Source of the DNA: Bacillota bacterium
GTDB taxonomy: Bacteria > Bacillota > Limnochordia > JAAZLZ01
NCBI GenBank assembly: GCA_012521755.1
Contig: JAAYLV010000001.1
Coordinates: 2,014-66,013, forward strand
Direction of reading: 5' to 3'
DNA length: 64,000 bases
The notes under the pieces were generated by a model. That model did no database searches. It was not told the origin of the DNA and saw only the letters and a list, made by a program, of their open reading frames with translations. Both the position numbers and the translations under genes were made by a program. Positions within the stretch are counted from its first letter, which is position 1. The number at the start of each line of letters is the position of its first letter. Shown one piece after another: positions 1,720 to 62,320 of the stretch.

Positions 1720-2238
1720 TTGCGACAATGGCTGCAAAACCTGATTATTCTAGTCTTTCTTGTGGTTTTCCTGGAAACGCTGCTGCCCAAGAACAGCATC
1801 CGGGGTTTTGTCCAGCTCCTCATTGGCCTTGTCCTGATTGCCGCAATTCTTGAGCCAATGTTGGCCTTGACGGGACTAAGGATCGACTGGGAGCTGCCTG
1901 CCGGCGCTGGGCAGCGGGGAAGTGTACCCTTAGAAGCAGGCCTGAGCCTGAGGCAAAGGGCCCTTGCCCGGTTGCGGGGAGACTACGTTGCCCGCTTGAA
2001 CGACCAAGCCGCGGCCCTTCTCGCCCTGACCCCTGGGATAGAAGAAGCGGCAGTCCAGGCGGTGCTGTCTGACGGCCGCATCGATAGGGTCATCGTCGAG
2101 CTGCAGCTAATGCCCGGGGAGAGGCAGGAGGCGTGGGATGAGAGAATAACCCCCTTTATCGCCCAATTCTACGGTCTCAGTCAAGGGGCAGTCCATGTCC
2201 AGTACAGGGAGGGTGGGAGCAGTGGGACTTCTCGATAA
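1720..2238 (+). CDS. spoIIIAF: Stage III sporulation protein AF
   Basis: 172 aa, N-terminal TM helices then soluble domain. Operon position after AE. Confidence 0.75.
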   Translation: MRQWLQNLIILVFLVVFLETLLPKNSIRGFVQLLIGLVLIAAILEPMLALTGLRIDWELPAGAGQRGSVPLEAGLSLRQRALARLRGDYVARLNDQAAALLALTPGIEEAAVQAVLSDGRIDRVIVELQLMPGERQEAWDERITPFIAQFYGLSQGAVHVQYREGGSSGTSR

Positions 2239-2845
2239 TAGGCATCGATGGTGGCGGCAAGGACCTGAACAAGGAGATGATGATGGCCTTTTCAACCTCA
2301 ATCCTGCCCAGGCGCGGCGGGCGAAGCTGACGGTGGTCCTTCTCCTGGCGGGCTTAGTTCTCCTGGTGAGTACCGCTCCCGAACGCAAACCCACAGTCGA
2401 GAGTCTGGCCGAGCCGGCGTTGGTGCCAGCTCCCGAAGAAAGCTGGTCCGATTTCCAGACCCGCCTGGAACGGTCCCTGGCTGAGGCCCTTGCTCAGATC
2501 GCCGGGGTGGGGGAGGTAAGGGTCTTGCTGACGGCCGACGGCCCCCGACGGGAGTATCTAGCCAATCAGACAAAGGAGGTGAGGACTACCGTCGATAGTG
2601 ATCGCGCCGGCGTTGAGCGACAAATCACCGAGGAGCGGACAACGATCCAGTATGTTCTTGTCGCCGATGATGCCCGCAAGGGAGAGCAGCCCATCGTTGT
2701 TCAGGAAGGTCGGCCCCCTATTCGCGGAGTACTGATAATCGCCGAAGGGGCCAGGGACCCTCGGGTGAGACTCGATATTTTGCGGGCGGTGGAGACAGTC
2801 CTGGGGGTGCCGGCCCACAGGATCGAAGTCATGCCGAGAAAGTAG
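2195..2845 (+). CDS. spoIIIAG: Stage III sporulation protein AG (start uncertain; true start probably downstream of 2195 near the TM segment)
   Basis: Single N-terminal TM (LTVVLLLAGLVLLV) then a soluble ring-building-motif-like domain. The longest ORF overlaps the spoIIIAF end. Confidence 0.7.
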   Translation: MSSTGRVGAVGLLDNRHRWWRQGPEQGDDDGLFNLNPAQARRAKLTVVLLLAGLVLLVSTAPERKPTVESLAEPALVPAPEESWSDFQTRLERSLAEALAQIAGVGEVRVLLTADGPRREYLANQTKEVRTTVDSDRAGVERQITEERTTIQYVLVADDARKGEQPIVVQEGRPPIRGVLIIAEGARDPRVRLDILRAVETVLGVPAHRIEVMPRK

Positions 2846-3594: not shown

Positions 3595-4047
3595 ATGAAT
3601 CTAGATGAGATAAAGGAACTCATACAGGCGCTAAGCGACAGCAATTTGGCCGAGCTCGAACTAGAGACGGACAAGGTGCGGTTATACCTGAAGAAAGCAG
3701 TCGTCTCGACGGCGCAAGAGGGCCAACGACCGGAAGAGACCTTTCCGCGGCTGCCGGTGACCGGCCAGGTGTTGCCGGCTGAGCCATCGGAGGTGCAAGA
3801 AGAGACGGTGATCATCGCTGCACCGATGGTCGGCGTCTTTTACAGGGCGCCGGCGCCCGACGCTCCTCCCTATGTGGAAGTCGGCGACAGGATCGCCGAG
3901 GGGCAGCCCCTATGCATCATCGAGGCCATGAAGATGATGAATGAGATTGAGGCTGATGTTGCCGGGATCATCAAGGAGATCCTGGTGGAAAACGAACAGC
4001 CCGTGGAGTACGGCCAACCTTTGTTTGTCGTTGAGAAACTTGGCTAG
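3595..4047 (+). CDS. accB: Acetyl-CoA carboxylase biotin carboxyl carrier protein
   Basis: 150 aa with the [11 protein letters not shown] biotinylation motif and a C-terminal biotinyl/lipoyl domain. Confidence 0.9.
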
Positions 4048-4058
4048 GGGGAGAAGAG

Positions 4059-5414
4059 TTGTTTCGCAAGGTGTTGATCGCTAACAGGGGGGAGATCGCC
4101 CTCCGGATTATCCGTGCTTGCCAAGAACTAGACATCAGAACGGTGGCCATCTATTCCGAGGCCGATGCCGATTCCCTTCATGTCGCCTACGCCGACGAGG
4201 CCTACTGTGTAGGCCCGGCCCCATCATCCCAAAGTTACCTCAACATTCCCAACATCATCAGCGCGGCCCTCATCTCAGGGGCCGACGCCATCCATCCTGG
4301 CTATGGGTATCTGGCCGAACGGGCCCATTTTGCCGAAATCTGCCGGGCTAATGGACTGGCCTTCATCGGGCCTTCTCCGGAGACTATTGAGCGGATGGGG
4401 GATAAAGCCGCAGCGAAGAGGGCCATGGAGGAGGCGGGCGTGCCCGTCATCCCTGGAAGTCAGGGCGGTGTGGAAAGCGACCGGGAGGCGGCTGGTATTG
4501 CCCGGGAGATTGGTTATCCGGTTATCGTCAAAGCTGCCGCAGGAGGCGGGGGCAAAGGGATGAGGGTGGCCTATGATGAGAAGGAGCTGCTTCGCGTTCT
4601 AGCCCCGGCGCGGGCCGAGTCGGAGGCCGCCTTTGGCAGCGGCGTTGTGTATCTCGAAAAGTTCGTCACCAAACCACGACATGTTGAAATCCAGATCCTC
4701 GTTGATTCTTATGGAAAGGCCATCCATCTAGGTGAACGGGAGTGTTCATTGCAGCGTCGTCACCAAAAACTCTTGGAGGAAGCTCCTTGTCCCATCATGA
4801 CCGATGAGCTTCGAGAAGCCATGGGAAAAGCTGCCCTGAAAGGGGCCTTGGCGGTCGATTACGTTAATGCGGGAACAGTGGAGTTTCTCCTGGACAGTGA
4901 AGGCCGCTATTATTTCATGGAGATGAATACCCGCATCCAGGTGGAGCATCCGGTGACGGAGATGGTAACAGGGGTTGATCTTGTCCGGGAGCAGCTCCTC
5001 ATTGCCGCCGGCGAGCCTTTGAGCTGCAATCAGGAAGACATTACCATGAAGGGACACGCCATCGAGTGTCGCATTGCCGCTGAAGATCCCTACCGCAATT
5101 TCCTGCCGTCGCCGGGGAGAATTACCACCTATCGTCCGCCGGGAGGGCCAGGGATCCGCGTCGACAGTGCCGCCTACGAGGGGTGGGCTGTGCCTTCGTA
5201 TTACGACTCTATGTTTGCCAAGCTGATCGCGTGGGCACCCACCCGGGACCGAGCCATTGACCGTATGAAAGTAGCTTTGCGGCAGTTTGCCATTGAGGGC
5301 ATTGCCCACACGATTCCGTTCCATCTAGAGATCCTCGACGACCCGTTCTTTCGCCGGGGAGAACTGTCAACGGACTTTATCGAGACCCGCTTTCTGGCCA
5401 AGAATGCTCTCTGA
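4059..5414 (+). CDS. accC: Acetyl-CoA carboxylase biotin carboxylase subunit
   Basis: 451 aa, ATP-grasp biotin carboxylase ([20 protein letters not shown]..., GGGGKGMR). TTG start with a G-rich RBS. Confidence 0.95.
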
Positions 5415-5441: not shown

Positions 5442-5476
5442 CTATGGGTGCATCCAGCAAATGGAGGTGGACAGAG

Positions 5477-5863
5477 TTGGCTGATACGAAAGATAAGACG
5501 GAACTGGGCGAGCTGAGAATTGCCAACGAAGTGGTAGGCATCATCGCTGGACTGGCCGCTACCGAGATTGAGGGCGTTGCCGGAATGAGTGGCGGCATCG
5601 CTGGCGGCATCGCCGAGATGCTTGGACGCAAGAACCTTTCCAAGGGGGTCAAAGTGGAAGTGGGGGAGGAGCAGGCCGCAGTAGACCTGTTCATCATCGT
5701 CAACTACGGAGTGCGGATCCCGGATGTGGCCACAAAAATCCAGGAGAATGTAAAGCGGGCCATCGAGGGGATGACGGGACTGCAGGTGGTTGAGGTCAAT
5801 GTCAATATCCAGGGCGTCCACTTCCCCCAGGAAGAAAAGCCCGAGGAGGTTCGGGTTAGGTAA
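5477..5863 (+). CDS. Asp23/Gls24 family alkaline-shock envelope stress protein (TTG start at 5477 with GGAGGTGG RBS; longest ORF begins at 5444)
   Basis: Core ELGELRIANEVVGIIAGLAATEIEGVAGM typical of the Asp23 family; Glu-rich C-terminus. Confidence 0.8.
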   Translation: MADTKDKTELGELRIANEVVGIIAGLAATEIEGVAGMSGGIAGGIAEMLGRKNLSKGVKVEVGEEQAAVDLFIIVNYGVRIPDVATKIQENVKRAIEGMTGLQVVEVNVNIQGVHFPQEEKPEEVRVR

Positions 5864-5884
5864 CCCGCACAGCAAGAGGAGGAG

Positions 5885-6430
5885 ATGTCAGTGCGGGCAT
5901 ATGATCGCGTGATCCTGGTGGCTCTGTCCCTGGTTTCCCTTATTATGTCGCTGCTGGCCTTTGCCTTGGGCTGGGGATGGAATCCGGCCGAGCAAGTGTT
6001 CCACTGGCTGGATTACATCGCCCGGTTTGACGGCACACGGCCGACGATAGCCGGCGTTATTTTGTTGTTGCTCAGCCTTTACATATTGCGACTGGCCCTT
6101 CGTGATTTGGGGACCGCCCCTCCCTTGGCATGGGAGAGTCAGTTAGGTCAAGTTCACATCAGCATGTCTGTTCTGGAAAGCCTCATCCGGCGTTCAGCCC
6201 AAGAAGTGGTTGGCGTGCAGGATGTGGAGGCAAAAGTTCGGGCCCGCGCGGAAGGAGTGGGTATCCTTTTGAGTCTGAAGGTCTTGCCTGATGTGAGCAT
6301 CCCCGCAGTGGTCGAAGCGGTTCAGGCGGGCGTAAAGGAGTATCTGAAACAGACAACGGGACTAGACATAGCGGATGTTCAGGTGAAAGTAAAGAGTCTG
6401 GTCCGGGACAAGAAGCCGAGGGTAGAGTAG
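5885..6430 (+). CDS. AmaP-like alkaline shock response membrane anchor protein
   Basis: 181 aa with two N-terminal TM helices and a soluble tail. Conserved partner directly downstream of asp23. Confidence 0.65.
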   Translation: MSVRAYDRVILVALSLVSLIMSLLAFALGWGWNPAEQVFHWLDYIARFDGTRPTIAGVILLLLSLYILRLALRDLGTAPPLAWESQLGQVHISMSVLESLIRRSAQEVVGVQDVEAKVRARAEGVGILLSLKVLPDVSIPAVVEAVQAGVKEYLKQTTGLDIADVQVKVKSLVRDKKPRVE

Positions 6431-6451
6431 GGGAAGTGAGGTGCTCCGCAG

Positions 6452-6670
6452 ATGGAGGAGCTGTGGGATCAGATACGGAGGGCGGTCCATCGCCATAAAG
6501 GCCGCTTTTGGGGGAGCGTCATCGGGCTGGTCGTGGCGCTGCTCATCCTGCGGTTTGGGTTTTGGCGAGCGCTCTTCATTGGTTTGTGTCTCTTGATAGG
6601 ATACTTTATCGGCAGCCTAGTGGAAAGGGAAGAGCTGCCGGAACTGCTCAGGCGTTTGTGGCCGCGTTGA
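6452..6670 (+). CDS. DUF2273-family small integral membrane protein
   Basis: 72 aa, two TM helices. Third member of the conserved asp23-amaP-DUF2273 triad. Confidence 0.6.
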   Translation: MEELWDQIRRAVHRHKGRFWGSVIGLVVALLILRFGFWRALFIGLCLLIGYFIGSLVEREELPELLRRLWPR

Positions 6671-6686: not shown

Positions 6687-7100
6687 TTGAGTAGAAGGGC
6701 GGGCCGAGAATCGGCTCTGAAGGCGCTTTTTCAGATTGACGTCGGCAAGTGCGATCGGGACCTTAGCCTGGAAAACACCATTGCAGCCGATGGTTTGTCG
6801 CCCGCGGCTGCTTCTTATTGTCGCCAGCTCGTGCAAGGAGTCCTGGAGAACCGGGAGTCTATTGACGAGTTAATCAGTTCTAAGGCTATCGATTGGAAGT
6901 TGGACCGGATGGCAAATGTTGATCGAAACATCCTGCGGATTGCCGTCTTTGAGAGCATGTATGAGCGCCTTGTCCCCGTTGGGGTAGCTATCAACGAGGC
7001 TGTCGAGCTGGCCAAGGTCTACGGGGATGAGGAATCGAGCAAGTTTGTCAACGGGGTCTTGGGTGCCATTGCCCGGTCCCAGGTTGGAGAGAAGCTCTGA
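6687..7100 (+). CDS. nusB: Transcription antitermination factor NusB
   Basis: 137 aa with NusB-family sequence; classical position before xseA. Confidence 0.85.
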   Translation: MSRRAGRESALKALFQIDVGKCDRDLSLENTIAADGLSPAAASYCRQLVQGVLENRESIDELISSKAIDWKLDRMANVDRNILRIAVFESMYERLVPVGVAINEAVELAKVYGDEESSKFVNGVLGAIARSQVGEKL

Positions 7101-8329
7101 TGTGGCCGGCTGAACCAAAGGTTTGGACGGTGGCCGAGGCAACGGGGCGGATTGAAGACGCGATAGCTGCCGATCCGGTCTTGCAAAGCATTTTGATCCG
7201 GGGAGAGATCTCCAACTACAAGCGGCACATCTCGGGCCACACTTATTTCACCCTCAAGGATGCCAAGGCGCGCCTGCGCTGCGTCTTGTTTCGCCGCTAT
7301 GGACAAGCAGTCTCTTTTCCCCTCCGCGATGGACTTGAGGTCGTGGCGGCAGGCAGGATCGGCGTCTACCCGCCTAACGGAGATTATCAGCTGTATGTAG
7401 AGCAGGTCTTCCCGGCGGGAGAGGGACTCCTCCATTTTGCCTTTCAGCAGCTGAAGGAGAAACTGGCCACAGAGGGCTTGTTCGATCCGGAGCGGAAACG
7501 TCCTTTGCCGGCTTTTCCCCATCGTCTCGGAGTGATCACGTCCCTGCAAGGGGCTGCCCTGCGAGACATCGTCACCGTCGCTCGCCGCCGCAATCCCAAG
7601 ATCGATATTATCGTCGCCCCGGCCATCGTCCAAGGCAGTGAAGGTCCAGCTAGCATCATTAAGGCCTTGCAGCTATGCAATCGCTACGGCGAGCTAGACG
7701 TCATTATCCTTGGTAGGGGCGGAGGCTCCCTCGAGGACCTTTGGTCCTTCAACGATGAAGGGGTGGCTAGAGCCGTTTATGCATCCTCCATCCCCGTGAT
7801 CTCTGCCGTCGGTCATGAGACCGATGTGACTATTACGGATTTAGTTGCCGATCACCGGGCGCCTACCCCTTCCGCGGCAGCGGAGCTGGCTGTTCCAGAC
7901 GTTCGCGCCATCACAGGGCAGCTGAACAGTCTGTATGAGCGCCTCTGCCGGATGGCCCAAAGGCGCGTTGACCAAGGGCGAAGGCAGGTAATGAGCCTGG
8001 CGGAGCGAAGCGTCCTCCAACGGCCGGAAGAGAGGTTGAATCGGCTCCGGCTCACCTTAGATGAGAGGGAGCGCTCATTGCTGCTTGCGGTGCGCAACGG
8101 ATACAGGTTGAGCAAAGAGAGACTGACTAGCCTTGCCGGCAGGCTAGAGCTCCTTAGTCCCCTGGGGACTTTGGCCCGGGGCTATAGCATCTGTCAACTG
8201 CCCGACGGGCAGATTCTGCGCCGGGCCCAGGATGCCCGGGTCGGTGCCATGTTGCATATCATCCTTGGGGAAGGAAGGCTGCATGCCGAGGTTCAGCAGA
8301 TTCACCGGGAGGGAAGTGGAGGCTCGTGA
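7100..8329 (+). CDS. xseA: Exodeoxyribonuclease VII large subunit
   Basis: 409 aa, OB-fold N-terminus, catalytic core, coiled-coil C-terminus. ATGA overlap with nusB. Confidence 0.9.
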   Translation: MWPAEPKVWTVAEATGRIEDAIAADPVLQSILIRGEISNYKRHISGHTYFTLKDAKARLRCVLFRRYGQAVSFPLRDGLEVVAAGRIGVYPPNGDYQLYVEQVFPAGEGLLHFAFQQLKEKLATEGLFDPERKRPLPAFPHRLGVITSLQGAALRDIVTVARRRNPKIDIIVAPAIVQGSEGPASIIKALQLCNRYGELDVIILGRGGGSLEDLWSFNDEGVARAVYASSIPVISAVGHETDVTITDLVADHRAPTPSAAAELAVPDVRAITGQLNSLYERLCRMAQRRVDQGRRQVMSLAERSVLQRPEERLNRLRLTLDERERSLLLAVRNGYRLSKERLTSLAGRLELLSPLGTLARGYSICQLPDGQILRRAQDARVGAMLHIILGEGRLHAEVQQIHREGSGGS

Positions 8330-8571
8330 AGGAAATCAACTGGGAAGAAATAGGCTTTGAAGAAGCCTGCGAATTGTTAGAAGAGGTTGTGCGGCTGCTG
8401 GAAAGCGGCGAAACAACCCTGGAAGAATCCCTGGCCTTATTTGAACAAGGAATCAAATTGGTGCGTTTCTGCAACGAGTGTTTGGACAAGGCGGAAGGAA
8501 GAATTAGGGTGCTTGTGGATGAGGGTTTTGGCCCTGAACTTCGGGATCTTGCCCAAGGAGGAGTGGGATGA
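8326..8571 (+). CDS. xseB: Exodeoxyribonuclease VII small subunit
   Basis: 81 aa helical protein; overlaps the xseA stop. Confidence 0.9.
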   Translation: MKEINWEEIGFEEACELLEEVVRLLESGETTLEESLALFEQGIKLVRFCNECLDKAEGRIRVLVDEGFGPELRDLAQGGVG

Positions 8572-9455
8572 AGGTGAAGGATCTTAAGCAGTATTCGCAA
8601 AGCCGGGCGCAGTTGATCGAAAAGGCCCTTGAAGAGTATCTGCCCGGCGATGATGTCGTGCCAGAGATCTTGCACCGTTCCATGCGCTATTCCACTTTGG
8701 GCGGAGGCAAACGTCTGCGGGGCATTCTAGCCCTTGCTGCTGCCGAGATGGCCGGGGGTTCGAGGGATACGGCCCTGCCTTTGGCGGCGGCCTTGGAGAT
8801 GATTCATGCTTTCTCCTTGATCCACGATGATTTGCCCTGCATGGATGATGACGATTGGCGACGGGGCAAGCCTTCGAATCATAAGATGTTCGGCGAAGCC
8901 ATCGCCCTCCTGGCCGGCGATGCCTTGCTGACCAGGGCCTTCTATTTGCTTACTCGCCTTGCCCTGCCCGGCGATGTGGTGGTCAATATCGTTGCCGAGG
9001 TGGCCCAGGCCGTTGGGAGCGAAGGATTGATCGGCGGCCAGGTGGTTGACCTCCAGTCGGAGGGCAAGCAGGTGGATAGGGCTACCTTAGAGTACATTCA
9101 TTGCCATAAGACTGGGGACCTGATTGCTGTCGCTTTGCGAACGGGCGCCATGGTTGGGGGAGCAGGGGAGGAGCTGCTTGCTTCCTTGACGGCCTATGGC
9201 CGGGAGCTTGGCCTTTTGTTTCAGATCACTGACGACATCTTGGATGTGGAAGGCGATGCGGACAAGCTCGGCAAACCAGTTGGCAGCGATGTAAGCCATG
9301 GCAAGGCGACCTATCCGGCACTATTTGGTATGGAAAAGGCGAAAGAGGCTGCTCAGGCCGCAGCTGCCAATGCGTTAGCGGCCGTTGCGGGCTTAGGTGA
9401 GGAGGCGTGGCCCCTGCGCGAGCTTATCGACTATATCTTGCACAGGGACAGATGA
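8568..9455 (+). CDS. ispA: (2E,6E)-farnesyl diphosphate synthase / polyprenyl synthetase
   Basis: First aspartate-rich motif IHDDLPCMDDDDWRRGKP and second motif FQITDDILD. Confidence 0.9.
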   Translation: MKVKDLKQYSQSRAQLIEKALEEYLPGDDVVPEILHRSMRYSTLGGGKRLRGILALAAAEMAGGSRDTALPLAAALEMIHAFSLIHDDLPCMDDDDWRRGKPSNHKMFGEAIALLAGDALLTRAFYLLTRLALPGDVVVNIVAEVAQAVGSEGLIGGQVVDLQSEGKQVDRATLEYIHCHKTGDLIAVALRTGAMVGGAGEELLASLTAYGRELGLLFQITDDILDVEGDADKLGKPVGSDVSHGKATYPALFGMEKAKEAAQAAAANALAAVAGLGEEAWPLRELIDYILHRDR

Positions 9456-9469
9456 GCCGGGAAACGTGG

Positions 9470-9509
9470 TTGCTTGCGGGGTTTGGGGCTGTGTGTTATA
9501 ATACAGCTA
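9470..9509 (+). promoter_or_regulatory. Sigma-A-type promoter (TTGCGG-17-TATAAT) driving the non-coding region downstream of ispA
   Basis: ttgcttgcggggtttggggctgtgtgTTATAATac. Near-identical architecture to the promoter in front of the ileS T-box. Confidence 0.45.
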
Positions 9510-10130
9510 CACCAAACAGTGGGCCGGCGCAGTATTCTAGTCGGCGCGGTTGCCTTTGAAGACGGGCCTAAAAATCCGTTAAGGGCACATCGATGAAGTC
9601 CCTGGTGGTGGCCGCCGAAGCCCAGTCGGGGGCTGTTGCTGGGGGTTAAGGAAATGGGGGCGATCTACAAAGGCATGTAGGCGTTGACCCCCTTTCCGCG
9701 GAGACCCAAGTTCGTGGCTATCGGTTACGGCTTGGGTAGAACCTGCACGCGATGCATCAACTGTCTTGGCAGTACTTAGCGTTGGGTGCAGCGTAGCCTG
9801 CCCTGAGTGGGGTGGTCGGATAGCAGGGTACAAGAAGGGTTCAGCGGCCGTAGAACCTGATCTTGATTTGGACTGCTTGAAAGCCATCTTGCAAAAGGGG
9901 CTAGAAGGCAATTAGCGTCGTTGAGGAAAACTCCTAGACTGTTTCCGGTGGATGGCACGTTGGGGATTGCGATGTGAGCTAAGTGGTGATCTAGCTCTGT
10001 TCTTGGCGACAGAACAGGCAGGCCGTAAAGGGGAAACCGCCAAGATGGCAACATCTTCGGAAGGCCTGTGGGAAAACCTGCTGGACCTGAAGCCACAATC
10101 TTTACTCAGCGTGCTGCCGGCCCATACATA
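9510..10130 (+). ncRNA. ole: Candidate OLE (ornate large extremophilic) RNA; 3' boundary approximate
   Basis: About 600 nt, GC-rich, dense in inverted repeats, no credible ORF on either strand. It has its own promoter and sits between ispA and a 4-TM membrane protein followed by dxs, the canonical OLE locus in anaerobic and extremophilic Firmicutes. Confidence 0.6.
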
Positions 10131-10776
10131 CCCTAAGGAGGCGGTGTTCCTTTCCTTGGGCGATCCGAATTTTCGCTCACAGATACGGCGGTTCTTAGCC
10201 GTCGGCGTAGCGACCTTTTTTTTATCAGTGGTCATTTCACTGGGGAGTCAAACCCTTCTCACCGTCTTTACCCTCTTCCCCGCCATGATTCTGCTCCTGG
10301 TCATCGTCGGACTAGGGATCATTTTTGACATCATCGGTGTTGCTGTCACCGCCGCGCGGGAAGAGCCCTTCCACGCCATGGCCGTTGACCGGGTTTCCGG
10401 CGCACAGCACGCTGTCCGCCTCATCCGCCATGCTGACAAGGTAGCCAATTTTGCCAACGATATGGTCGGTGATGTAGCCGGCACCCTCAGCGGAGCCGTG
10501 GCAACGGCAGTGGTGATGCGCTTGCTCCTGTTGCTGCCAGGACTGAAAGAGCCGGTAGTGACCACTTTGCTGGTGGGGCTGATTGCCGCCTTGACCGTTG
10601 CCGGCAAAGCTTGCGGCAAGGTGATTGCGTTGAAATATGCTGATGATATCGTCCTTGCTGTCGGCAGGCTCCTTTATTGGTTGGAGAAGGGCACCGGGAT
10701 TGCCATCTTAGGGAAGAATAATCGACGGTCCAAGAACAACAAGGGCCGGAAGCGGAAAGGGAAACGAGGCGACTAA
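10045..10776 (+). CDS. oapA: OLE-associated protein A-like 4-TM membrane protein (true start possibly GTG 10144 or TTG 10153, after the AAGGAGG at 10135-10141)
   Basis: Four predicted TM helices and a basic Lys/Arg-rich C-terminal tail. Sits between the structured RNA and dxs. Confidence 0.55.
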   Translation: MATSSEGLWENLLDLKPQSLLSVLPAHTYPKEAVFLSLGDPNFRSQIRRFLAVGVATFFLSVVISLGSQTLLTVFTLFPAMILLLVIVGLGIIFDIIGVAVTAAREEPFHAMAVDRVSGAQHAVRLIRHADKVANFANDMVGDVAGTLSGAVATAVVMRLLLLLPGLKEPVVTTLLVGLIAALTVAGKACGKVIALKYADDIVLAVGRLLYWLEKGTGIAILGKNNRRSKNNKGRKRKGKRGD

Positions 10777-10777
10777 C

Positions 10778-12628
10778 ATGGCTCGATTATTAGACGCGGT
10801 CAATTCACCCGCCGACTTGAAGGCCTTAACTTCCAGCCAGCTGAACCAGCTGGCGGAGGAAATACGGCAGGAGATCATCAGCACTGTCTCCTCTTGCGGG
10901 GGGCACTTGGCGGCCAATCTCGGCGTAGTAGAATTGACGATTGCCCTCCACAGCATTCTCGACAGTCCCCGGGACAAGATCATATGGGATGTGGGGCACC
11001 AGACTTATGCCCATAAACTCCTGACGGGACGACGGGATCGGTTTGCTTCACTCAGACAGTATGGCGGCATTAGCGGGTTTCCCCGTCGAGGGGAAAGTCT
11101 CCACGATATCTTTGGTGCCGGCCACAGCAGCACCTCCATCTCCGCGGCGTTGGGCCTAGCCGAGGCCCGGGACCTGTCCGGGGAAGATTACCGCGTGGTA
11201 GCCGTCATCGGTGATGGCGCCCTGGGGGCAGGACTCGCCTTTGAAGCCCTAAATCACGCTGGACACCGGGGAACGGATCTACTGGTGATCCTAAATGACA
11301 ATGAAATGTCTATTGACAAGAACGTTGGGGCCCTTGCCCGCTATCTTACCCAGCTGCGGATGGACCCCACTTTGTATAAGGCAAGGACAGAGCTGGAAAA
11401 CTTGCTGAAGCAAATCCCTGCCTTTGGTGGGATTGTCCACCGAGTTGTCGACAAACTCAAGGACGCCCTAAAGCAGGTCCTTGTCCCAGGGATGTTTTTT
11501 GAAGAGCTGGGGTTCTCTTATTACGGACCATTGAACGGCCATGACATCGGGTTGTTAAGATGGGGGCTACGGGACGCCTTGGCCATGAAAGGTCCGGTGC
11601 TCTTGCATGTGGTGACCACTAAGGGCAAGGGACATCCTTTAGCGGAGCGCAATCCCAAACGATACCATGGCATCGCGGCCGCATCATCTGGCGATAATGG
11701 CCGGTCTAATAGTCAGGTCTTTGGCGAAATGCTCTGTCGGCTGGCGAAGGAGGACGACCGGATTGTGGCCGTTACCGCCGCGATGGCGGAAGGGACGGGC
11801 TTGAGCCGATTCCAGGAACAGTTTCCCGATCGCTTCTTCGATGTGGGCATTGCCGAACAGCATGCCCTGGTGTTGGCGGCAGGACTGGCCGTCGGGGGGA
11901 AGCGGCCGGTCGTAGCTATGTACTCAACTTTCCTGCAGAGGGGATACGACCAGCTCATCCATGACATTTGCCTGCAGGAGCTGCCGGTGGTATTGGCCAT
12001 CGACCGAAGCGGTCTAGTCGGAGAAGACGGTCCCACCCACCACGGAGCCTTCGATCTATCCTTCCTGCGGATTATCCCTGGTCTGGTCATCATGGCGCCT
12101 AAGGACGGGAAGGAACTGGAAGACATGTTAGCCTGGGCCGTTACCCATGAAGGCCCCGTCGCCATTTGCTACCCTCGCGGGAGTCTACCTCCCCTCGGAC
12201 ATGAAGAGCCTATCCTCCTCGGCCGGGGGCAAAGGCTGCGGACGGGGAAGGACCTCAATTTCATTACCATCGGCTCCATGGTAGGACCTTGTCAGGGGGC
12301 AGCCGAACTCCTGGCCCGGCGAGGCATCGATGCGGGGGTGGTCAATGCCCGTTTCGTCAAACCGCTCGATGTGGACTTGATTGAGAATACGCCGGGCTAT
12401 CTGATTACCGTTGAAGAGAACGTCTTAATGGGCGGATTTGGCAGCGCCGTCCGGGAATTCCTCCCCGATGGCAGGCTCATCGGTTGCATCGGCCTGCCTG
12501 ATGTTTTTGTTGAGCACGGACCTTGCCCTGTTCTCCACGAAAAGTATGGGCTGACGCCGGAGGCGATTAGCGCCTATGCCCAAAAGGCCTTTTCTCTCGC
12601 CAGGGAGGGGAGGAAGTCCCTTGGCTAA
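10778..12628 (+). CDS. dxs: 1-deoxy-D-xylulose-5-phosphate synthase
   Basis: 616 aa, TPP-dependent transketolase-like (GHSSTSISAALG, GDGALGAG motifs). Confidence 0.95.
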   Translation: MARLLDAVNSPADLKALTSSQLNQLAEEIRQEIISTVSSCGGHLAANLGVVELTIALHSILDSPRDKIIWDVGHQTYAHKLLTGRRDRFASLRQYGGISGFPRRGESLHDIFGAGHSSTSISAALGLAEARDLSGEDYRVVAVIGDGALGAGLAFEALNHAGHRGTDLLVILNDNEMSIDKNVGALARYLTQLRMDPTLYKARTELENLLKQIPAFGGIVHRVVDKLKDALKQVLVPGMFFEELGFSYYGPLNGHDIGLLRWGLRDALAMKGPVLLHVVTTKGKGHPLAERNPKRYHGIAAASSGDNGRSNSQVFGEMLCRLAKEDDRIVAVTAAMAEGTGLSRFQEQFPDRFFDVGIAEQHALVLAAGLAVGGKRPVVAMYSTFLQRGYDQLIHDICLQELPVVLAIDRSGLVGEDGPTHHGAFDLSFLRIIPGLVIMAPKDGKELEDMLAWAVTHEGPVAICYPRGSLPPLGHEEPILLGRGQRLRTGKDLNFITIGSMVGPCQGAAELLARRGIDAGVVNARFVKPLDVDLIENTPGYLITVEENVLMGGFGSAVREFLPDGRLIGCIGLPDVFVEHGPCPVLHEKYGLTPEAISAYAQKAFSLAREGRKSLG

Positions 12629-13427
12629 GGTTCGACTCGACCAGCTTCTCATCCAGCGCTCTTTAGCCCCCAGTCGGCAGCGGGCCCAAGGGATGATCAT
12701 GGCGGGCATTGTCTACGTTGATGGCCATAGGGTGACCAAGCCCGGCAGCAAGTTTCCCCCCGAGGTGGATATCGAGGTGAAGGGGCAGGATCTTCCCTAT
12801 GTCAGCAGGGGTGGATTAAAGCTGGAGAAGGCCCTGGACCTGTGGCGGATCGATGTGATGGACAAAGTCGTTGTGGATGTGGGCGCCTCCACGGGGGGGT
12901 TTACCGATTGCCTCTTGCAGCGCGGCGCGGGCAAGGTCTACGCAATCGATGTGGGCTACGGACAGCTTGCTTGGTCGCTGCGGACCGATCCGCGGGTTGT
13001 CGTGATGGAAAGGACCAATATCCGCCATATGAATCCGGGGGATCTTGACGAACCTCCGGATTTGGCAACTGTGGACGTCTCTTTCATTTCCATCCGGAAA
13101 TTCCTGGATGTTCTCTGGAACCTGTTGACCCCCGATGGTGAAGTCATTGCCCTGGTGAAACCCCAGTTTGAAGCTGGTCGGGAGCAAGTGGGGAAGAAAG
13201 GGATCGTTCGCGATCCTGCGGTTCATCGGCACGTCTTGCTGGAAGTTGCCCAGGCGGCCGCGGCCTTGGGCTGGCAGACAGCAGGTCTAACCTATTCACC
13301 CATCACCGGTCCGGAGGGGAACATTGAATTTTTGATCTACTGGCGAAAGCACGGGGCTGCAACGATCTTGCTAGAGGAAGAAATCAAGCGGGTAGTTGAT
13401 GATGCCCATCGCTGGTTGATGGGATAG
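12621..13427 (+). CDS. tlyA: TlyA family rRNA (cytidine-2'-O)-methyltransferase / hemolysin A-like
   Basis: N-terminal S4 domain (RLDQLLIQRSLAPSRQRAQGMIMAGIVYVDG) and FtsJ-like methyltransferase (VVDVGASTGGFTD). TTG start overlapping the dxs stop. Confidence 0.85.
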   Translation: MAKVRLDQLLIQRSLAPSRQRAQGMIMAGIVYVDGHRVTKPGSKFPPEVDIEVKGQDLPYVSRGGLKLEKALDLWRIDVMDKVVVDVGASTGGFTDCLLQRGAGKVYAIDVGYGQLAWSLRTDPRVVVMERTNIRHMNPGDLDEPPDLATVDVSFISIRKFLDVLWNLLTPDGEVIALVKPQFEAGREQVGKKGIVRDPAVHRHVLLEVAQAAAALGWQTAGLTYSPITGPEGNIEFLIYWRKHGAATILLEEEIKRVVDDAHRWLMG

Positions 13428-17959: not shown

Positions 17960-18295
17960 CTACTTGTGTTTCTCCCTGCCCGCGGGCTCGCTAAGCCCCA
18001 GGACGTTATCCGCGGGCAAAGTAAAGATGATCCCTTTCCCTGGTTCGTGGAATTTGCCGGCTTCGACCAGCACATCGTAAATGGGACGGTATGCGTCTCG
18101 CGGCGACACAATTAGAATGACTTCTTTAGAGGATTCAATATGTAGATTAAGGAGTTTAGGAGCTTCAAAGACTCCAGTTCCCCGTCCATACAAGATAGTC
18201 CCGCCGAGCAGGCCTGCTTCCTTGGCCTTCTCTACTAGTCCCTGAGCTTTGCCCCGCTCGACGACCGCGATAATCGCTAAGTAATCCATCGACAA
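17960..18295 (-). CDS. P-II-like (GlnB superfamily) small regulatory protein
   Basis: 111 aa with P-II-like topology (GGTILYGRGTG loop). Directly downstream of a DUF1538 membrane protein, a recurrent pairing. Confidence 0.5.
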   Translation of the reverse strand: MSMDYLAIIAVVERGKAQGLVEKAKEAGLLGGTILYGRGTGVFEAPKLLNLHIESSKEVILIVSPRDAYRPIYDVLVEAGKFHEPGKGIIFTLPADNVLGLSEPAGREKHK

Positions 18296-18415
18296 TCCTC
18301 CTAAGTCTTTGCTCGAGCAACCAATATGGGTTGGGAGCCACCGAACCTGGCAGTCATCTCTTTCTTTGTCCGGTCTGGCTCACCACCCCTGTGGTCTGGC
18401 CGGTCCGACTGACAT

Positions 18416-19123
18416 CTACAAGAACCTGCTCAAGATCCCGAGGGACAACACCGACAGGATTGTCCCCATGGATGTCAAGCCAACGATGCCGAATCCAGCG
18501 AGCAACGGGTCAGTGACCTCAAGCATGCTCGCTAATCCTATGGCCAGGGCCATGTTAATCGGGATATTAACCGGCCCGGTAGTGGCGCTGGCACAATCCA
18601 TGGCGATGGCGACGAACTGTTCCGGTGCGAGCCGAATCAAGACCAGGAATAGGATCAGAATCGGCGTGATGATGGTTCTAATTGGAATGTTGTTTAGTAT
18701 CTTCAAGATCCCCATAGCCATGCCCAAACCGAAACCAAAGGCTACAGCGTGGACCAATACATTGTAAGGGATAGCACCTACCGATATTTCTTCGACTTCC
18801 AGTGCCAGAATTCTCAGTGCCGGCTCCACCAAAGTGCCAAAGTAGCCCAGGACAAAAGCAAATAGGGCTATTGCCAGCTTATTGTCGAGGACAACCAAAT
18901 CACGTCCAAGGGAGTCGCTCATGGGCAATAAGCTCATTGACGCCCCCTTGATGAAAAAGTGCAGCCCCAAGATACTCAGGACGATGCCGCCGATGAAGGT
19001 CTTCGGGTTCTCGGGACTATGCTTAAGGAAGAATGTCTTGAAGCCGACCATGAAAAGCGTAATTGGGAGAACGGTCTTGGCTGTTCCCCACAACGGCTTT
19101 AGCTGCTCTAAGAATCCCATCAC
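18416..19123 (-). CDS. DUF1538-family integral membrane protein
   Basis: 235 aa with about 6-7 TM helices; pattern typical of DUF1538 proteins that pair with P-II-like genes. Confidence 0.5.
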   Translation of the reverse strand: MMGFLEQLKPLWGTAKTVLPITLFMVGFKTFFLKHSPENPKTFIGGIVLSILGLHFFIKGASMSLLPMSDSLGRDLVVLDNKLAIALFAFVLGYFGTLVEPALRILALEVEEISVGAIPYNVLVHAVAFGFGLGMAMGILKILNNIPIRTIITPILILFLVLIRLAPEQFVAIAMDCASATTGPVNIPINMALAIGLASMLEVTDPLLAGFGIVGLTSMGTILSVLSLGILSRFL

Positions 19124-30042: not shown

Positions 30043-31311
30043 ATGTGGTATCAGCGGGTCCAATTGTTTCTGTACACCGGCATCATCTTGTTATTGTTAG
30101 CAAGTCCAGGAAGAGTGAACTTCGGTGTGCGTATGGAATGGGAGGAGGGTTTGCTCCGCCCGATTCTCCACTATGGCCGGGTGGGCTCCTTGACCCACGT
30201 AGAAGCAGAGTTGGGGCGAAAGTCCCAGGAGGAGTGGGGGCTATTGTCCGGGCGACTTGGAGTGGCGCCTGGCAATTGGAGTTTGCGGCTGATGTACAAT
30301 GATGAACATATCAGCTTCACCGATCCCTTCCGGATGGTGACGAAAGGCGTTCGCCGCGAGGATAGTTGTGGAGGAGTGCTGGTAGGGGATGTTGGCCGAC
30401 AACGGTTTGTCGGCCTTTATGTGCGTGACTTTCCCTATCCCCGCCGCACGGGCCACTTGGCAGGGACCCAATGGGAGTGGCGGGGCGATGGGCTTCACTT
30501 GGGCTGTGCCGGCATCGCCCAGCACCTGGAGGCGGACTGGTACGCGTGGATGTATAATGTCTACGCTCGCGCCCTCCTTGGCAAGCTGGAACTTGGGGGA
30601 GCTATCGGCAAGATCAACAGGGACGGTGAAGATGGGGCAGGTCTGGCTACCTTCCGCTATCCCACTTCTTGGGGTCACGTTTCCTGGACTTATCAACACA
30701 TCGGGGAAGGATGGCGATCTTGGGCCAACTGGGAAGATCCCTATCGGCGGGACAGGCGGGGTTCGACCGTGGGGATTCGCTGGCGCCACGATCGCTGGGG
30801 CCGGGTATTGCTCGAAGTTAAGCGGCTCACCGATCTGGCGGGTGTGCAAAGGGATGAAGGAATGGTCCTCGATTACTTGGGGTGGAAGATCCGGGACTGG
30901 CGCTGGCGGGTGCGCTTTGAAGATCGCAATGGTCAACATCGCCTAGAGACGGAAGCTTATCGCGGTCCTTGGAGCTGCGCTTTCGTGGCGGTGGAGCAGG
31001 CGGCGGGATGGGATCGGCGCGTCCGCGTCCGGGGGAAGATCCTTCCCTGGCTGTCCGCGGCAGTGGGATTTCAAGAGTTGGAAAGACGTTGGCGGCTTCA
31101 GCTTGACCTGCAAGTGAAGGAATGGACGGTGCGGGGGATTGGCAAGGTCCGGCAGCGGGAAGATAAGAACCGCTATTACTACCTGCGGGCCGCGCGGGAG
31201 TTTGGACGGAGCCAGGTATTCCTGGAGCTTGGACGCTACGACCGGGGTCGGCTCGATGCTTACTGGGTTCCCGAAAAAACAGTCAACTTGGGTTGGGAGA
31301 TATCCTTTTGA
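30043..31311 (+). CDS. Hypothetical Trp/Arg-rich secreted protein, beta-barrel-like (C-terminal ...NLGWEISF)
   Basis: Signal-peptide-like N-terminus, very high W/R/G content, alternating-strand patterns, C-terminal Phe. No recognisable family. Confidence 0.4.
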   Translation: MWYQRVQLFLYTGIILLLLASPGRVNFGVRMEWEEGLLRPILHYGRVGSLTHVEAELGRKSQEEWGLLSGRLGVAPGNWSLRLMYNDEHISFTDPFRMVTKGVRREDSCGGVLVGDVGRQRFVGLYVRDFPYPRRTGHLAGTQWEWRGDGLHLGCAGIAQHLEADWYAWMYNVYARALLGKLELGGAIGKINRDGEDGAGLATFRYPTSWGHVSWTYQHIGEGWRSWANWEDPYRRDRRGSTVGIRWRHDRWGRVLLEVKRLTDLAGVQRDEGMVLDYLGWKIRDWRWRVRFEDRNGQHRLETEAYRGPWSCAFVAVEQAAGWDRRVRVRGKILPWLSAAVGFQELERRWRLQLDLQVKEWTVRGIGKVRQREDKNRYYYLRAAREFGRSQVFLELGRYDRGRLDAYWVPEKTVNLGWEISF

Positions 31312-31343
31312 GGGGGTGCATACACTTGAAGGGGGTGATGGGA

Positions 31344-31598
31344 ATGCTTTACTCGGAGCTAGCCGGAAAGGAGATTATCAGCATCGACGAGGGGATTCGC
31401 CTGGGGCTGCTCGATCGGGCTGATGCGATCATTGATACGGAAACGGGACGATTGACGGCGCTCATCCTCCCTGTTCCCGGTGCCCGCCGCTTTGACCGGA
31501 AAAGGTGGATGATGTTGCCGTGGCACGGGATCAAGAAAATTGGACTGGACTTGTTGATCGTTGATATGTCCCAGGCTCGGGATGTGGGCAAGCCCTGA
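31344..31598 (+). CDS. YlmC/YmxH family sporulation protein (PRC barrel)
   Basis: MLYSELAGKEIISIDEGIRLGLL...DTETGRLTALIL. RBS GGGGGTGATGGGA. Confidence 0.75.
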   Translation: MLYSELAGKEIISIDEGIRLGLLDRADAIIDTETGRLTALILPVPGARRFDRKRWMMLPWHGIKKIGLDLLIVDMSQARDVGKP

Positions 31599-42860: not shown

Positions 42861-43006
42861 TGAGGATGTTCGGACCATCTGAAGAAACACATCCCAACGG
42901 ACGATAAGGGGAGTGAGGGTTGTCTTACCTTCAGCCGTTCTGGAGAATCCTCAGGCTCGGCTAGATCAATTTTGCGATGTTTTCGGGCCTTGTGCCATCT
43001 ACCGCC

Positions 43007-43035
43007 TTGTACTTTACCCGCCCCTCGGATATAAT
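43007..43035 (+). promoter_or_regulatory. Sigma-A-type promoter TTGTAC-17-TATAAT upstream of the RNase J gene (about 150-nt leader)
   Basis: Hexamers and spacing read from the sequence. Confidence 0.4.
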
Positions 43036-43183
43036 AACATCGAGAATTCTGGGACGGCTTTTCCTCAAGCTTATCGATCAGGACGGAGCGCCGGGTCCTG
43101 GTCTCTTTGCAAGACCCCTGAAAAGGGCCTTTTTTGTGTTTTTCTGAACGCGAGTCAACTTATTCGGAGGTGTTAACCTGTCA

Positions 43184-50931: not shown

Positions 50932-51201
50932 TTGTATATCATGATTTATTTGGTGCGAACGGCTTTCTCAATCTACCGCTGGCTCCTGCTGGCTCGGGTC
51001 CTCATCTCCTGGGTGAACCCCAATCCCTATCATCCGGCCGTTAGGGTAGTCTATGACTTGACTGAACCTGTCCTCCAGCCTTGTCGCGGCTTGCTCCCCA
51101 CTTATCACTATGGGATTGACTTTTCGCCGATGATCGCTCTTCTTGGTTTAGGAATCCTAGAGCGGTTGGTCATCGGCATCGTCTACGGCATCCTTTATTA
51201 A
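50932..51201 (+). CDS. YggT family membrane protein (YlmG)
   Basis: 89 aa, two TM; conserved position. Confidence 0.8.
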   Translation: MYIMIYLVRTAFSIYRWLLLARVLISWVNPNPYHPAVRVVYDLTEPVLQPCRGLLPTYHYGIDFSPMIALLGLGILERLVIGIVYGILY

Positions 51202-52584: not shown

Positions 52585-52828
52585 AGGCAAAGGCGATGAA
52601 AAGGAGAGTAGTCTTAGGTTTGGCTGCAGCGAGCCGGGGAGGGTGGAAGCCCGGTGGGAAAGCCTAGGATGAAGATCACCTTGGAGCTGCGGTCTGAAGT
52701 GTCGCGGACATGGGTAAGATCCGTCGGTTGCGGCCGTTATCCGCTTAAGAGCGCACACAACTGTGTGCAGCGGGGTGGTACCGCGGGAGTCACTCTCTCG
52801 TCCCGGAAGGGGCGGGATTTTTTTATGG
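52585..52828 (+). promoter_or_regulatory. T-box riboswitch leader (Ile specifier AUC at 52675-52677) with intrinsic terminator, upstream of ileS
   Basis: Promoter TTGGTTATAATAC. Stem I GA motif gcgatgaaaaggagagtag, specifier gaagAUCAcc, T-box sequence cagcGGGGTGGTACCGCGggag, terminator cccggaaggggcggg followed by attttttt. Confidence 0.8.
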
Positions 52829-52849
52829 GGACTTGAAGGAGGAGGAGTC

Positions 52850-62008: not shown

Positions 62009-62320
62009 TTGGCGAGGGATTTGAACCAGGGGGTTGTGGAGACCCTTCTGCGCAAAATCAACGAACTCATCGAAGGGATGGAGAAGGCCGCTTTGGCCGA
62101 ACACATAGAGCTTTACCGACGCCCGCGCCGCCTTTTTTTCCTCAACTTTTGGGCCGGTCTGATGCGGGGTTTTGGCATTGCGGTGGGCTTTACGGTCGTC
62201 GGTTCGGTCTTCTTGATCGCCCTTGGGCGGCTTGCTTCGTTAAATCTGCCTATCATCGGCCGCTTTATCGCTGAGATCGTCAGGATCGTCCATGAGACCC
62301 TCGCCCTCCGGCAAATCTAA
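62009..62320 (+). CDS. Small membrane protein, DUF5665-like
   Basis: 103 aa; YRRPRRLFFLNFWAGLMRGFGIAVGFTVVGSVFL pattern. Confidence 0.4.
   Translation: MARDLNQGVVETLLRKINELIEGMEKAALAEHIELYRRPRRLFFLNFWAGLMRGFGIAVGFTVVGSVFLIALGRLASLNLPIIGRFIAEIVRIVHETLALRQI

Follow-up and report, generated by a model that had tools for sequence, protein, structure and literature searches.

The OLE RNA family, its membrane partner OapA and the order of the genes around them have been described since 2006, and the subject here is a locus of this kind, ole-oapA between ispA and dxs, in a 64-kb stretch of DNA from a Bacillota bacterium (the window). OLE (ornate, large, extremophilic) RNA is a large bacterial RNA of about 600 nt, many of whose nucleotides are highly conserved; its hosts are Bacillota, typically anaerobes or extremophiles, and oapA follows it directly, among genes for isoprenoid synthesis, DNA repair and translation. 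OLE has been found in 2,846 GTDB assemblies (PMC11332333), and dxs is often adjacent to ole and oapA (PMC10898510, PMC12265935). Among its helices, the long P3 has been proposed to cross the membrane, the partial OapA-binding sites that have been mapped include palindromes within or close to P2, and the J6/7-P8 region is commonly variable (PMC12265935). OapB binding needs the GNRA tetraloop and the single-nucleotide bulge of P13, and P14.1 is a weak secondary OapB site in Halalkalibacterium halodurans (PMC7936274); in the same organism an alternative kink-turn that flanks P5 is bound by OapC (YbxF) (PMC9723947). OapA is distinguished from CNNM domains by a DxxxD motif. It was reported to match the Pfam CNNM family below threshold and, in the case of the H. 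halodurans protein, to give a CorB/CorC-like result in fold comparison, and the OLE RNA has been proposed as a stand-in for CBS and CorC domains (PMC11332333).

In the window, the plus strand at 9508-10136 almost certainly encodes a full-length OLE RNA, and the gene that starts at 10144 or 10156 and ends at 10776 its membrane partner OapA; nothing was found that contradicts this identification. Compared with known OLE RNAs (RF01071; for example those of H. halodurans and, by cryo-EM, of Clostridium botulinum and C. acetobutylicum), the RNA of the window shares the length, the Rfam helices, P1-P3, the conserved joining sequences, the GNRA loops of P13 and P14.1, the P13 bulge and the kink-turn strands, as well as the position between ispA and oapA-dxs in a spore-forming Bacillota host. 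In structure it differs only by a shorter stem (9705-9736) and a 21-nt loop insertion (9757-9777). The features of the RNA are as follows.

9508..10136, plus strand: full-length OLE RNA (RF01071), from cmscan, model pairs, covariation and the z-score of the minimum free energy (MFE)
9521..9528, plus strand: 5' strand of P1, GGGCCGGC, a perfect 8-bp complement of 10116-10123
10116..10123, plus strand: 3' strand of P1, GCCGGCCC, pairing with 9521-9528
9536..9540, plus strand: 5' strand of P2, UCUAG, which holds a CUAG palindrome and pairs with 9934-9938
9934..9938, plus strand: 3' strand of P2, CUAGA, pairing with 9536-9540
9542..9557, plus strand: 5' strand of P3, 16 bp with 9904-9920, present in the MFE fold
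9904..9920, plus strand: 3' strand of P3, 16 bp with 9542-9557
9589..9599, plus strand: J4a/5 segment AUCGAUGAAGU, predicted bulged strand of the alternative kink-turn, located after PMC9723947
9645..9651, plus strand: J5/6 and the first two nucleotides of P6, GUUAAGG, predicted non-bulged strand of the kink-turn, located after PMC9723947
9757..9777, plus strand: 21 nt absent from the Rfam model, inserted in the terminal loop of hairpin 9743-9790 (cmscan insert columns)
9997..10017, plus strand: P13 hairpin with GNRA tetraloop GCGA (10006-10009) and single bulge C10002 (cmscan alignment)
10039..10060, plus strand: P14.1 hairpin with GNRA tetraloop GCAA at 10048-10051 (cmscan alignment, model pairs, covariation)

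The whole window was scanned against all 4,227 Rfam families with cmscan. The region 9508-10136 matched OLE with 454.2 bits (E 4e-130; gathering score 50), and the match, 629 nt long, spans model positions 1-616 of 616 without truncation. OLE is the sole Rfam family matched there; the second match of the window is a T-box at 52587-52808, more than 42 kb away. When the structure of the model was projected onto the window, 155 of its 159 base pairs were present, 145 of them canonical. The region has an MFE z-score of -4.4 relative to shuffled sequence, and 133 of the 155 model pairs are also obtained when the sequence by itself is folded by thermodynamics.

The RNA was compared with its relatives in a set of loci that carry relatives of the downstream protein, drawn from bacterial genomes with one genome per species; 17 loci were scanned. 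At 16 of them a full-length OLE RNA (364-536 bits) lies directly upstream of the gene for an OapA homologue. These 16 RNAs and that of the window were aligned with MAFFT, an alignment that is not fitted to structure. The relatives are 61-94% identical to the RNA of the window, and all 17 sequences agree in 199 columns. Standard pairs occupy 88.1% of the pair cells; in controls with the partners shifted by 1-3 columns the figure is 38-46%. Compensatory change on both sides is seen in 95 of the 155 pairs, and in 500 column shuffles pairing and covariation never came up to these values. A first-pass annotation of this DNA, made from its letters, had proposed an OLE RNA between ispA and dxs, and had named a covariance-model search as one way to check it. 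That search has now been run; the score, the complete model, the structure and the covariation agree, and the proposal is borne out.

The helices P1, P2 and P3 of the published model, which are unannotated in the Rfam consensus, are all present and covarying. In P1, 93% of the cells are paired and seven of the eight pairs show compensatory change among the 17 sequences; this helix delimits a folded core of 603 nt (9521-10123). Two CUAG palindromes make up P2, whose five pairs are standard pairs throughout the 17 sequences; the outer one covaries, as U-A in 8, C-G in 7 and U-G in 2. Another register of P2, UAGUC with GACUG, was rejected, since the covarying position fits only UCUAG with CUAGA. 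In P3, 88.9% of the cells are paired, compared with 39-54% in the slid controls, and 14 of the 16 pairs are compensatory.

The sequence elements for OapB (the P13 loop and bulge) and, as predicted kink-turn strands, for OapC are present. The P13 helix covaries, seven of its eight pairs having changed on both sides. The segment AUCGAUGAAGU at 9589-9599 is invariant in 17 of the 17 aligned OLE RNAs; within GUUAAGG, the core TAAGG is likewise invariant in all 17, and the two positions before it vary in a few. The individual positions of the kink-turn were assigned by inference from the text of PMC9723947 and not from its figure.

Deviations from the OLE model are peripheral and fall within the part of the RNA that is commonly variable. 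The stem 9705-9736 (model positions about 204-241) is some 12 nt shorter than in the model, a property shared, as is the 21-nt insertion, with the sister genome (locus L001), whose OLE RNA is 94% identical to that of the window. Within the insertion a further short stem is possible, ACUG 9760-9763 with CAGU 9770-9773; the same stem with another loop is found in L001, and other relatives also have insertions at that loop. The OLE RNA of the window is of the full-length form and not the reduced variant 1 or 2 of PMC11332333, because all model positions are aligned and P7-P9 and the OapB site in P13 are present. The 390-bit cut-off given in PMC11332333 was set with a different model and is only indicative for the score obtained here.

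The signals upstream of the RNA and the gene downstream of it are the following.

9474..9502, plus strand: candidate sigma-70-type promoter with -35 TTGCGG at 9474-9479, a 17-nt spacer and extended -10 TGTTATAAT at 9494-9502, read from the sequence
10135..10141, plus strand: Shine-Dalgarno AAGGAGG for oapA, 11 nt past the 3' strand of P1, identical in L001
10144 (GTG) or 10156 (TTG)..10776, plus strand: oapA, with stop TAA at 10774-10776 and a product of 210 or 206 aa

The protein translated from 10144 has 582 database homologues. In an alignment of 30 homologues, D62, G65, A78, D106, G109, D110, S116, G117, K155, K159 and A162 are invariant, including both Asp residues of the DxxxD motif (D106-M-V-G-D110). 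Four hydrophobic segments of transmembrane length were found by hydropathy at about residues 17-35, 48-66, 107-131 and 138-156, and the helices of the AlphaFold2 model agree with them; 12 Lys/Arg residues stand among the last 35. The description, made at first reading, of a protein directly downstream with four transmembrane segments and a Lys/Arg-rich tail is thus confirmed. The only Pfam match is to CNNM and is below threshold (25.8 bits, cut-off 28.4 bits), so by Pfam the protein is not a member of that family, which is the behaviour reported for OapA. No NCBIfam model matches OapA, whether in its 210-aa or its 274-aa form. In fold comparison, CorB and CorC are the two best matches, with CorB 7M1U in first place. 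Since a sequence profile of the 30 homologues finds no solved structure at E <= 1, the relationship to CNNM is visible by fold only, beside the sub-threshold Pfam match.

The downstream protein is OapA and not an MpfA-type transporter, because it matches no CBS or CorC domain; it ends after the fourth helix and the basic tail. In contrast, the CNNM Mg2+ transporters MpfA, CorB and CorC have three transmembrane helices, where OapA has four, together with a CBS pair and a CorC domain, both missing in OapA, and the DxxxD motif is OapA's. With OapA of H. halodurans the protein of the window shares a length of about 200 aa, four predicted transmembrane helices, DxxxD and a gene immediately downstream of ole, and with the OapA family the basic residues (invariant K155 and K159, Lys/Arg tail), the weak similarity to CNNM and CorB 7M1U as best fold match. 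It shows no substantive difference from OapA, its start codon being uncertain; this likeness is drawn from published features and not from the H. halodurans sequence.

One of the 17 loci scanned, L020 in Desulfosporosinus sp. SYSU MS00001 (NZ_JBNFTW010000013.1, 4001-4591), encodes an OapA homologue of 43% identity. The 4 kb that flank it on each side give no OLE match even at E <= 1, whereas OLE lies directly upstream at all of the remaining 16. This homologue could be a paralogue, or ole could lie elsewhere in that genome.

The start of oapA is ambiguous between GTG 10144 and TTG 10156. A synonymous third-position difference from L001 at 10155 weakly favours GTG 10144, and the length of the N-terminus in L006 favours TTG 10156. 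The start had earlier been placed past the AAGGAGG at 10135 instead of at the head of the longest open reading frame (ORF), at GTG 10144 or TTG 10153; the placement stands and the GTG is in frame, but the TTG lies at 10156-10158. Public gene calls show a recurring misannotation in this organism and the sister species: at loci L081-L083 and in proteins P0001-P0003, oapA is extended by 33 or 64 codons into OLE (window positions 10045-10143 and 9952-10143), giving products of 243 aa and 272-274 aa, and the RNA is unannotated.

A promoter for the RNA of the form TTGCGG-17-TATAAT had been noted at first reading. The hexamers and the spacer were confirmed, but the -35 matches TTGACA at only 3 of 6 positions, and the promoter is a candidate only. 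The -10 hexamer TATAAT lies at 9497-9502 with a TG at 9494-9495, which makes an extended -10, and transcription is predicted to start at about 9508-9510. A consensus promoter scanner did not list the site at 9474-9502 because of the 3/6 match of the -35. L001 has the same two hexamers and the same TG, next to an ispA 3' end and an intergenic stretch with many substitutions; the promoter was kept as a candidate because of this conservation against a diverged background. On the plus strand, no terminator-like site was found between 9455 and 10144. As ole and oapA are not set apart by a terminator, and the ribosome-binding site of oapA begins 11 nt past P1, it is probable that ole, oapA and dxs share a transcript; transcription could enter by read-through from ispA and could run on into oapA-dxs. 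The OLE RNA of H. halodurans is reported to lie within a long polycistronic transcript (PMC12265935), whereas the ole of the window has the candidate promoter directly upstream. Relatives also differ in this respect: L002, L004, L006, L007, L009 and L012 have a terminator-like GC-rich hairpin with a T run between the OLE 3' end and oapA, and the window and L001 have none there.

The region might instead be protein-coding, oapA starting at ATG 9952 (274 aa) or ATG 10045 (243 aa) and the supposed RNA being its 5' coding part. We regard this as exceedingly improbable. The N-terminal extension lies wholly within the 454-bit OLE match, and substitutions among relatives keep base pairs, not codons, although the ORF is open from 9952, the closest database proteins P0001-P0003 are recorded as 272-274 aa and identical public contigs carry a 243-aa call. 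More distant OapA homologues have 176-246 aa, and the extension occurs only in the closest relatives (P0003 in the alignment). In several relatives (e.g. L002, L006, L008, L069) an in-frame stop stands past the OLE 3' end and ahead of the oapA match, so that the oapA frame cannot reach into the RNA there; ATG 10045 lies inside the P14.1 hairpin. The protein-coding reading is thereby effectively refuted. ORFs called mechanically run through the region on either strand (9952-10776, plus, 274 aa; 9579-9911, 9776-10096 and 9912-10235, all minus), and the first-pass annotation had counted about 600 nt without a plausible ORF; from the ispA stop (TGA 9453-9455, as had been stated for 9455) to GTG 10144 the distance is about 690 nt. 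The antisense ORFs (110, 106 and 107 aa) were rejected as genes, being inside the RNA match, where substitutions preserve base pairs. The GC content of the RNA region, 0.54-0.56, is slightly below that of the flanks (0.57-0.59), and the description "GC-rich" does not distinguish it. It is hardly credible that a different structured RNA, such as RNase P, tmRNA, a riboswitch or another leader, lies here and controls oapA-dxs: the RNA is indeed directly upstream of the gene with no terminator between, but only OLE matches there in the Rfam scan, and the T-box is remote. The scan refutes this possibility.

It is also very unlikely that the OLE RNA of the window is decaying or reduced and has ceased to form the full particle, whether as a pseudogene or as published short variant 1 or 2. 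Its 454 bits lie low in the range of the 16 relatives, one stem falls short of the model, a hairpin loop carries the insertion, and ten model pairs are non-canonical; yet the match runs through all 616 positions, P7-P9, the OapB site in P13 and the kink-turn strands are present, and the length changes keep to the commonly variable region (PMC12265935). The published variants score below the full-length class and are without P7/P8 or the OapB site (PMC11332333), the comparison being approximate as the thresholds come from a different model. In L001 the RNA has remained 94% identical while the ispA 3' end and the intergenic stretch diverged far more, which argues for purifying selection. A further possibility, which we consider unlikely, is that ole forms the structured 5' section of a messenger shared with oapA and dxs, the folding, processing or protein loading of OLE setting the level of OapA, and perhaps of Dxs, in cis. 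This possibility rests on the conserved candidate promoter with its extended -10, the absence of a terminator after ole and the Shine-Dalgarno sequence 11 nt past P1; if true, cis control of OapA would amount to autoregulation of a kind undescribed in the OLE family. Reservations about the reading as OLE RNA and OapA are the weak -35 element, the distance from the Shine-Dalgarno sequence to either start (2 nt to GTG 10144, 14 nt to TTG 10156), neither of which is typical and which leaves the start ambiguous, and the result that OapB and OapC are not among five small ORFs tested in the 64-kb window, which is the window alone and not the genome. The membrane-spanning model and the Mg2+-related function, moreover, are hypotheses of the literature and not settled.

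With a full-length OLE RNA and OapA as the preferred reading, a mechanism can be borrowed from the work on H. halodurans and clostridial OLE (PMC12265935, PMC9723947, PMC7936274, PMC11332333), and is inferred here. The RNA would be made in high amounts, from its own candidate promoter at 9474-9502 or by read-through from ispA. It would have two domains, the larger one cytoplasmic, linked through the long P3, and would dimerise. An OapA dimer would hold OLE at, and possibly across, the cytoplasmic membrane, contacting palindromic sequences of the kind mapped in or near P2 and P4a, and OapB and OapC, encoded elsewhere, would complete the particle. In the published pattern oapB (ybzG-like, a KOW/SBB protein) and oapC (ybxF, L7Ae family) are present, while mpfA (CNNM, CBS and CorC) is missing or has one copy. 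Such a particle may aid tolerance of stress, including short-chain alcohols, cold, excess Mg2+ and poor carbon sources. OapA probably has a CNNM/MpfA-like divalent-cation function, and the RNA may supply the regulatory roles of the CBS and CorC domains of MpfA.

The host is an uncultured spore-forming Bacillota bacterium, as judged from its spoIIIA, spoIVB and spo0A genes and from its nearest relatives, which are metagenome-assembled genomes (MAGs) of Bacillota/Limnochordia; the nearest named relatives are Limnochordia MAGs. The nearest reference genome, 'Bacillota bacterium AS23ysBPME_287', shows 86% identity in OapA and 94% in OLE and the same arrangement. Three public metagenome assemblies (JGI 3300027510, JGI 3300002166 and ENA ERZ773359) hold contigs with 0-3 mismatches over 7.8 kb. 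Neither Limnochordia nor the accession of the sister genome was found in the supplement of PMC11332333. The view that any new lineage copy of OLE is valuable finds no support: ole-oapA occurs in the nearest reference genome, in Limnochordia and in other Bacillota, and thousands of assemblies with OLE are already on record. The locus is a routine member of a well-characterised family and already known. One more full-length copy, from an uncultured and genetically intractable organism, does not make the function of OLE more testable; the practical gain is the correction of the oapA annotation.

The genes that flank ole and oapA are listed below.

7100-8329, plus strand: xseA (Pfam, NCBIfam)
8326-8571, plus strand: xseB (Pfam, NCBIfam)
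8568-9455, plus strand: ispA, farnesyl-diphosphate synthase (NCBIfam FPPsyn, 359 bits)
10778-12628, plus strand: dxs (TIGR00204, 759 bits)
12576-13427, plus strand: tlyA (Pfam, NCBIfam)
after tlyA, to 16555, plus strand: nadK, argR and recN, the last from the ORF list and from the SMC_N and AAA_23 families on an identical public contig

The full order is spoIIIA genes, accB, accC, two Asp23-family genes, DUF2273, nusB, xseA, xseB, ispA, ole, oapA, dxs, tlyA, nadK, argR, recN, spoIVB and spo0A. It is the classic ole neighbourhood, and the synteny xseA-xseB-ispA-[RNA]-oapA-dxs-tlyA noted at first reading is upheld by the Pfam and NCBIfam matches; ole stands upstream of oapA in 16 of the 17 related loci as well. 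The small ORFs checked for OapB and OapC were these.

17960-18295: P-II-like
31293-31598: PRC-barrel
42913-43176: no match
50932-51201: YGGT
62009-62320: DUF5665

Some further observations were made in the window. Between accC and nusB (5444-6670, plus strand) lie two Asp23-family genes and a DUF2273 small membrane protein; the first Asp23 gene sits at the position of yqhY, which is listed in the literature as a frequent associate of ole. In the spoIIIA operon, an ORF of 216 aa without a Pfam match (2195-2845, plus strand) occupies the expected place of spoIIIAG, flanked by the homologues of SpoIIIAF and SpoIIIAH. The row of otherwise co-directional genes is interrupted between spoIVB and spo0A by a pair on the opposite strand (17960-19123, minus), a DUF1538 membrane protein and a small P-II-like protein. 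The T-box leader at 52587-52808 (plus strand; RF00230, 106 bits, gathering score 93) lies directly upstream of the ORF 52763-55600, which encodes a class I aminoacyl-tRNA synthetase with an IleRS-type zinc finger and is probably ileS. Because the longest ORF begins inside the T-box, its true start must lie further downstream.

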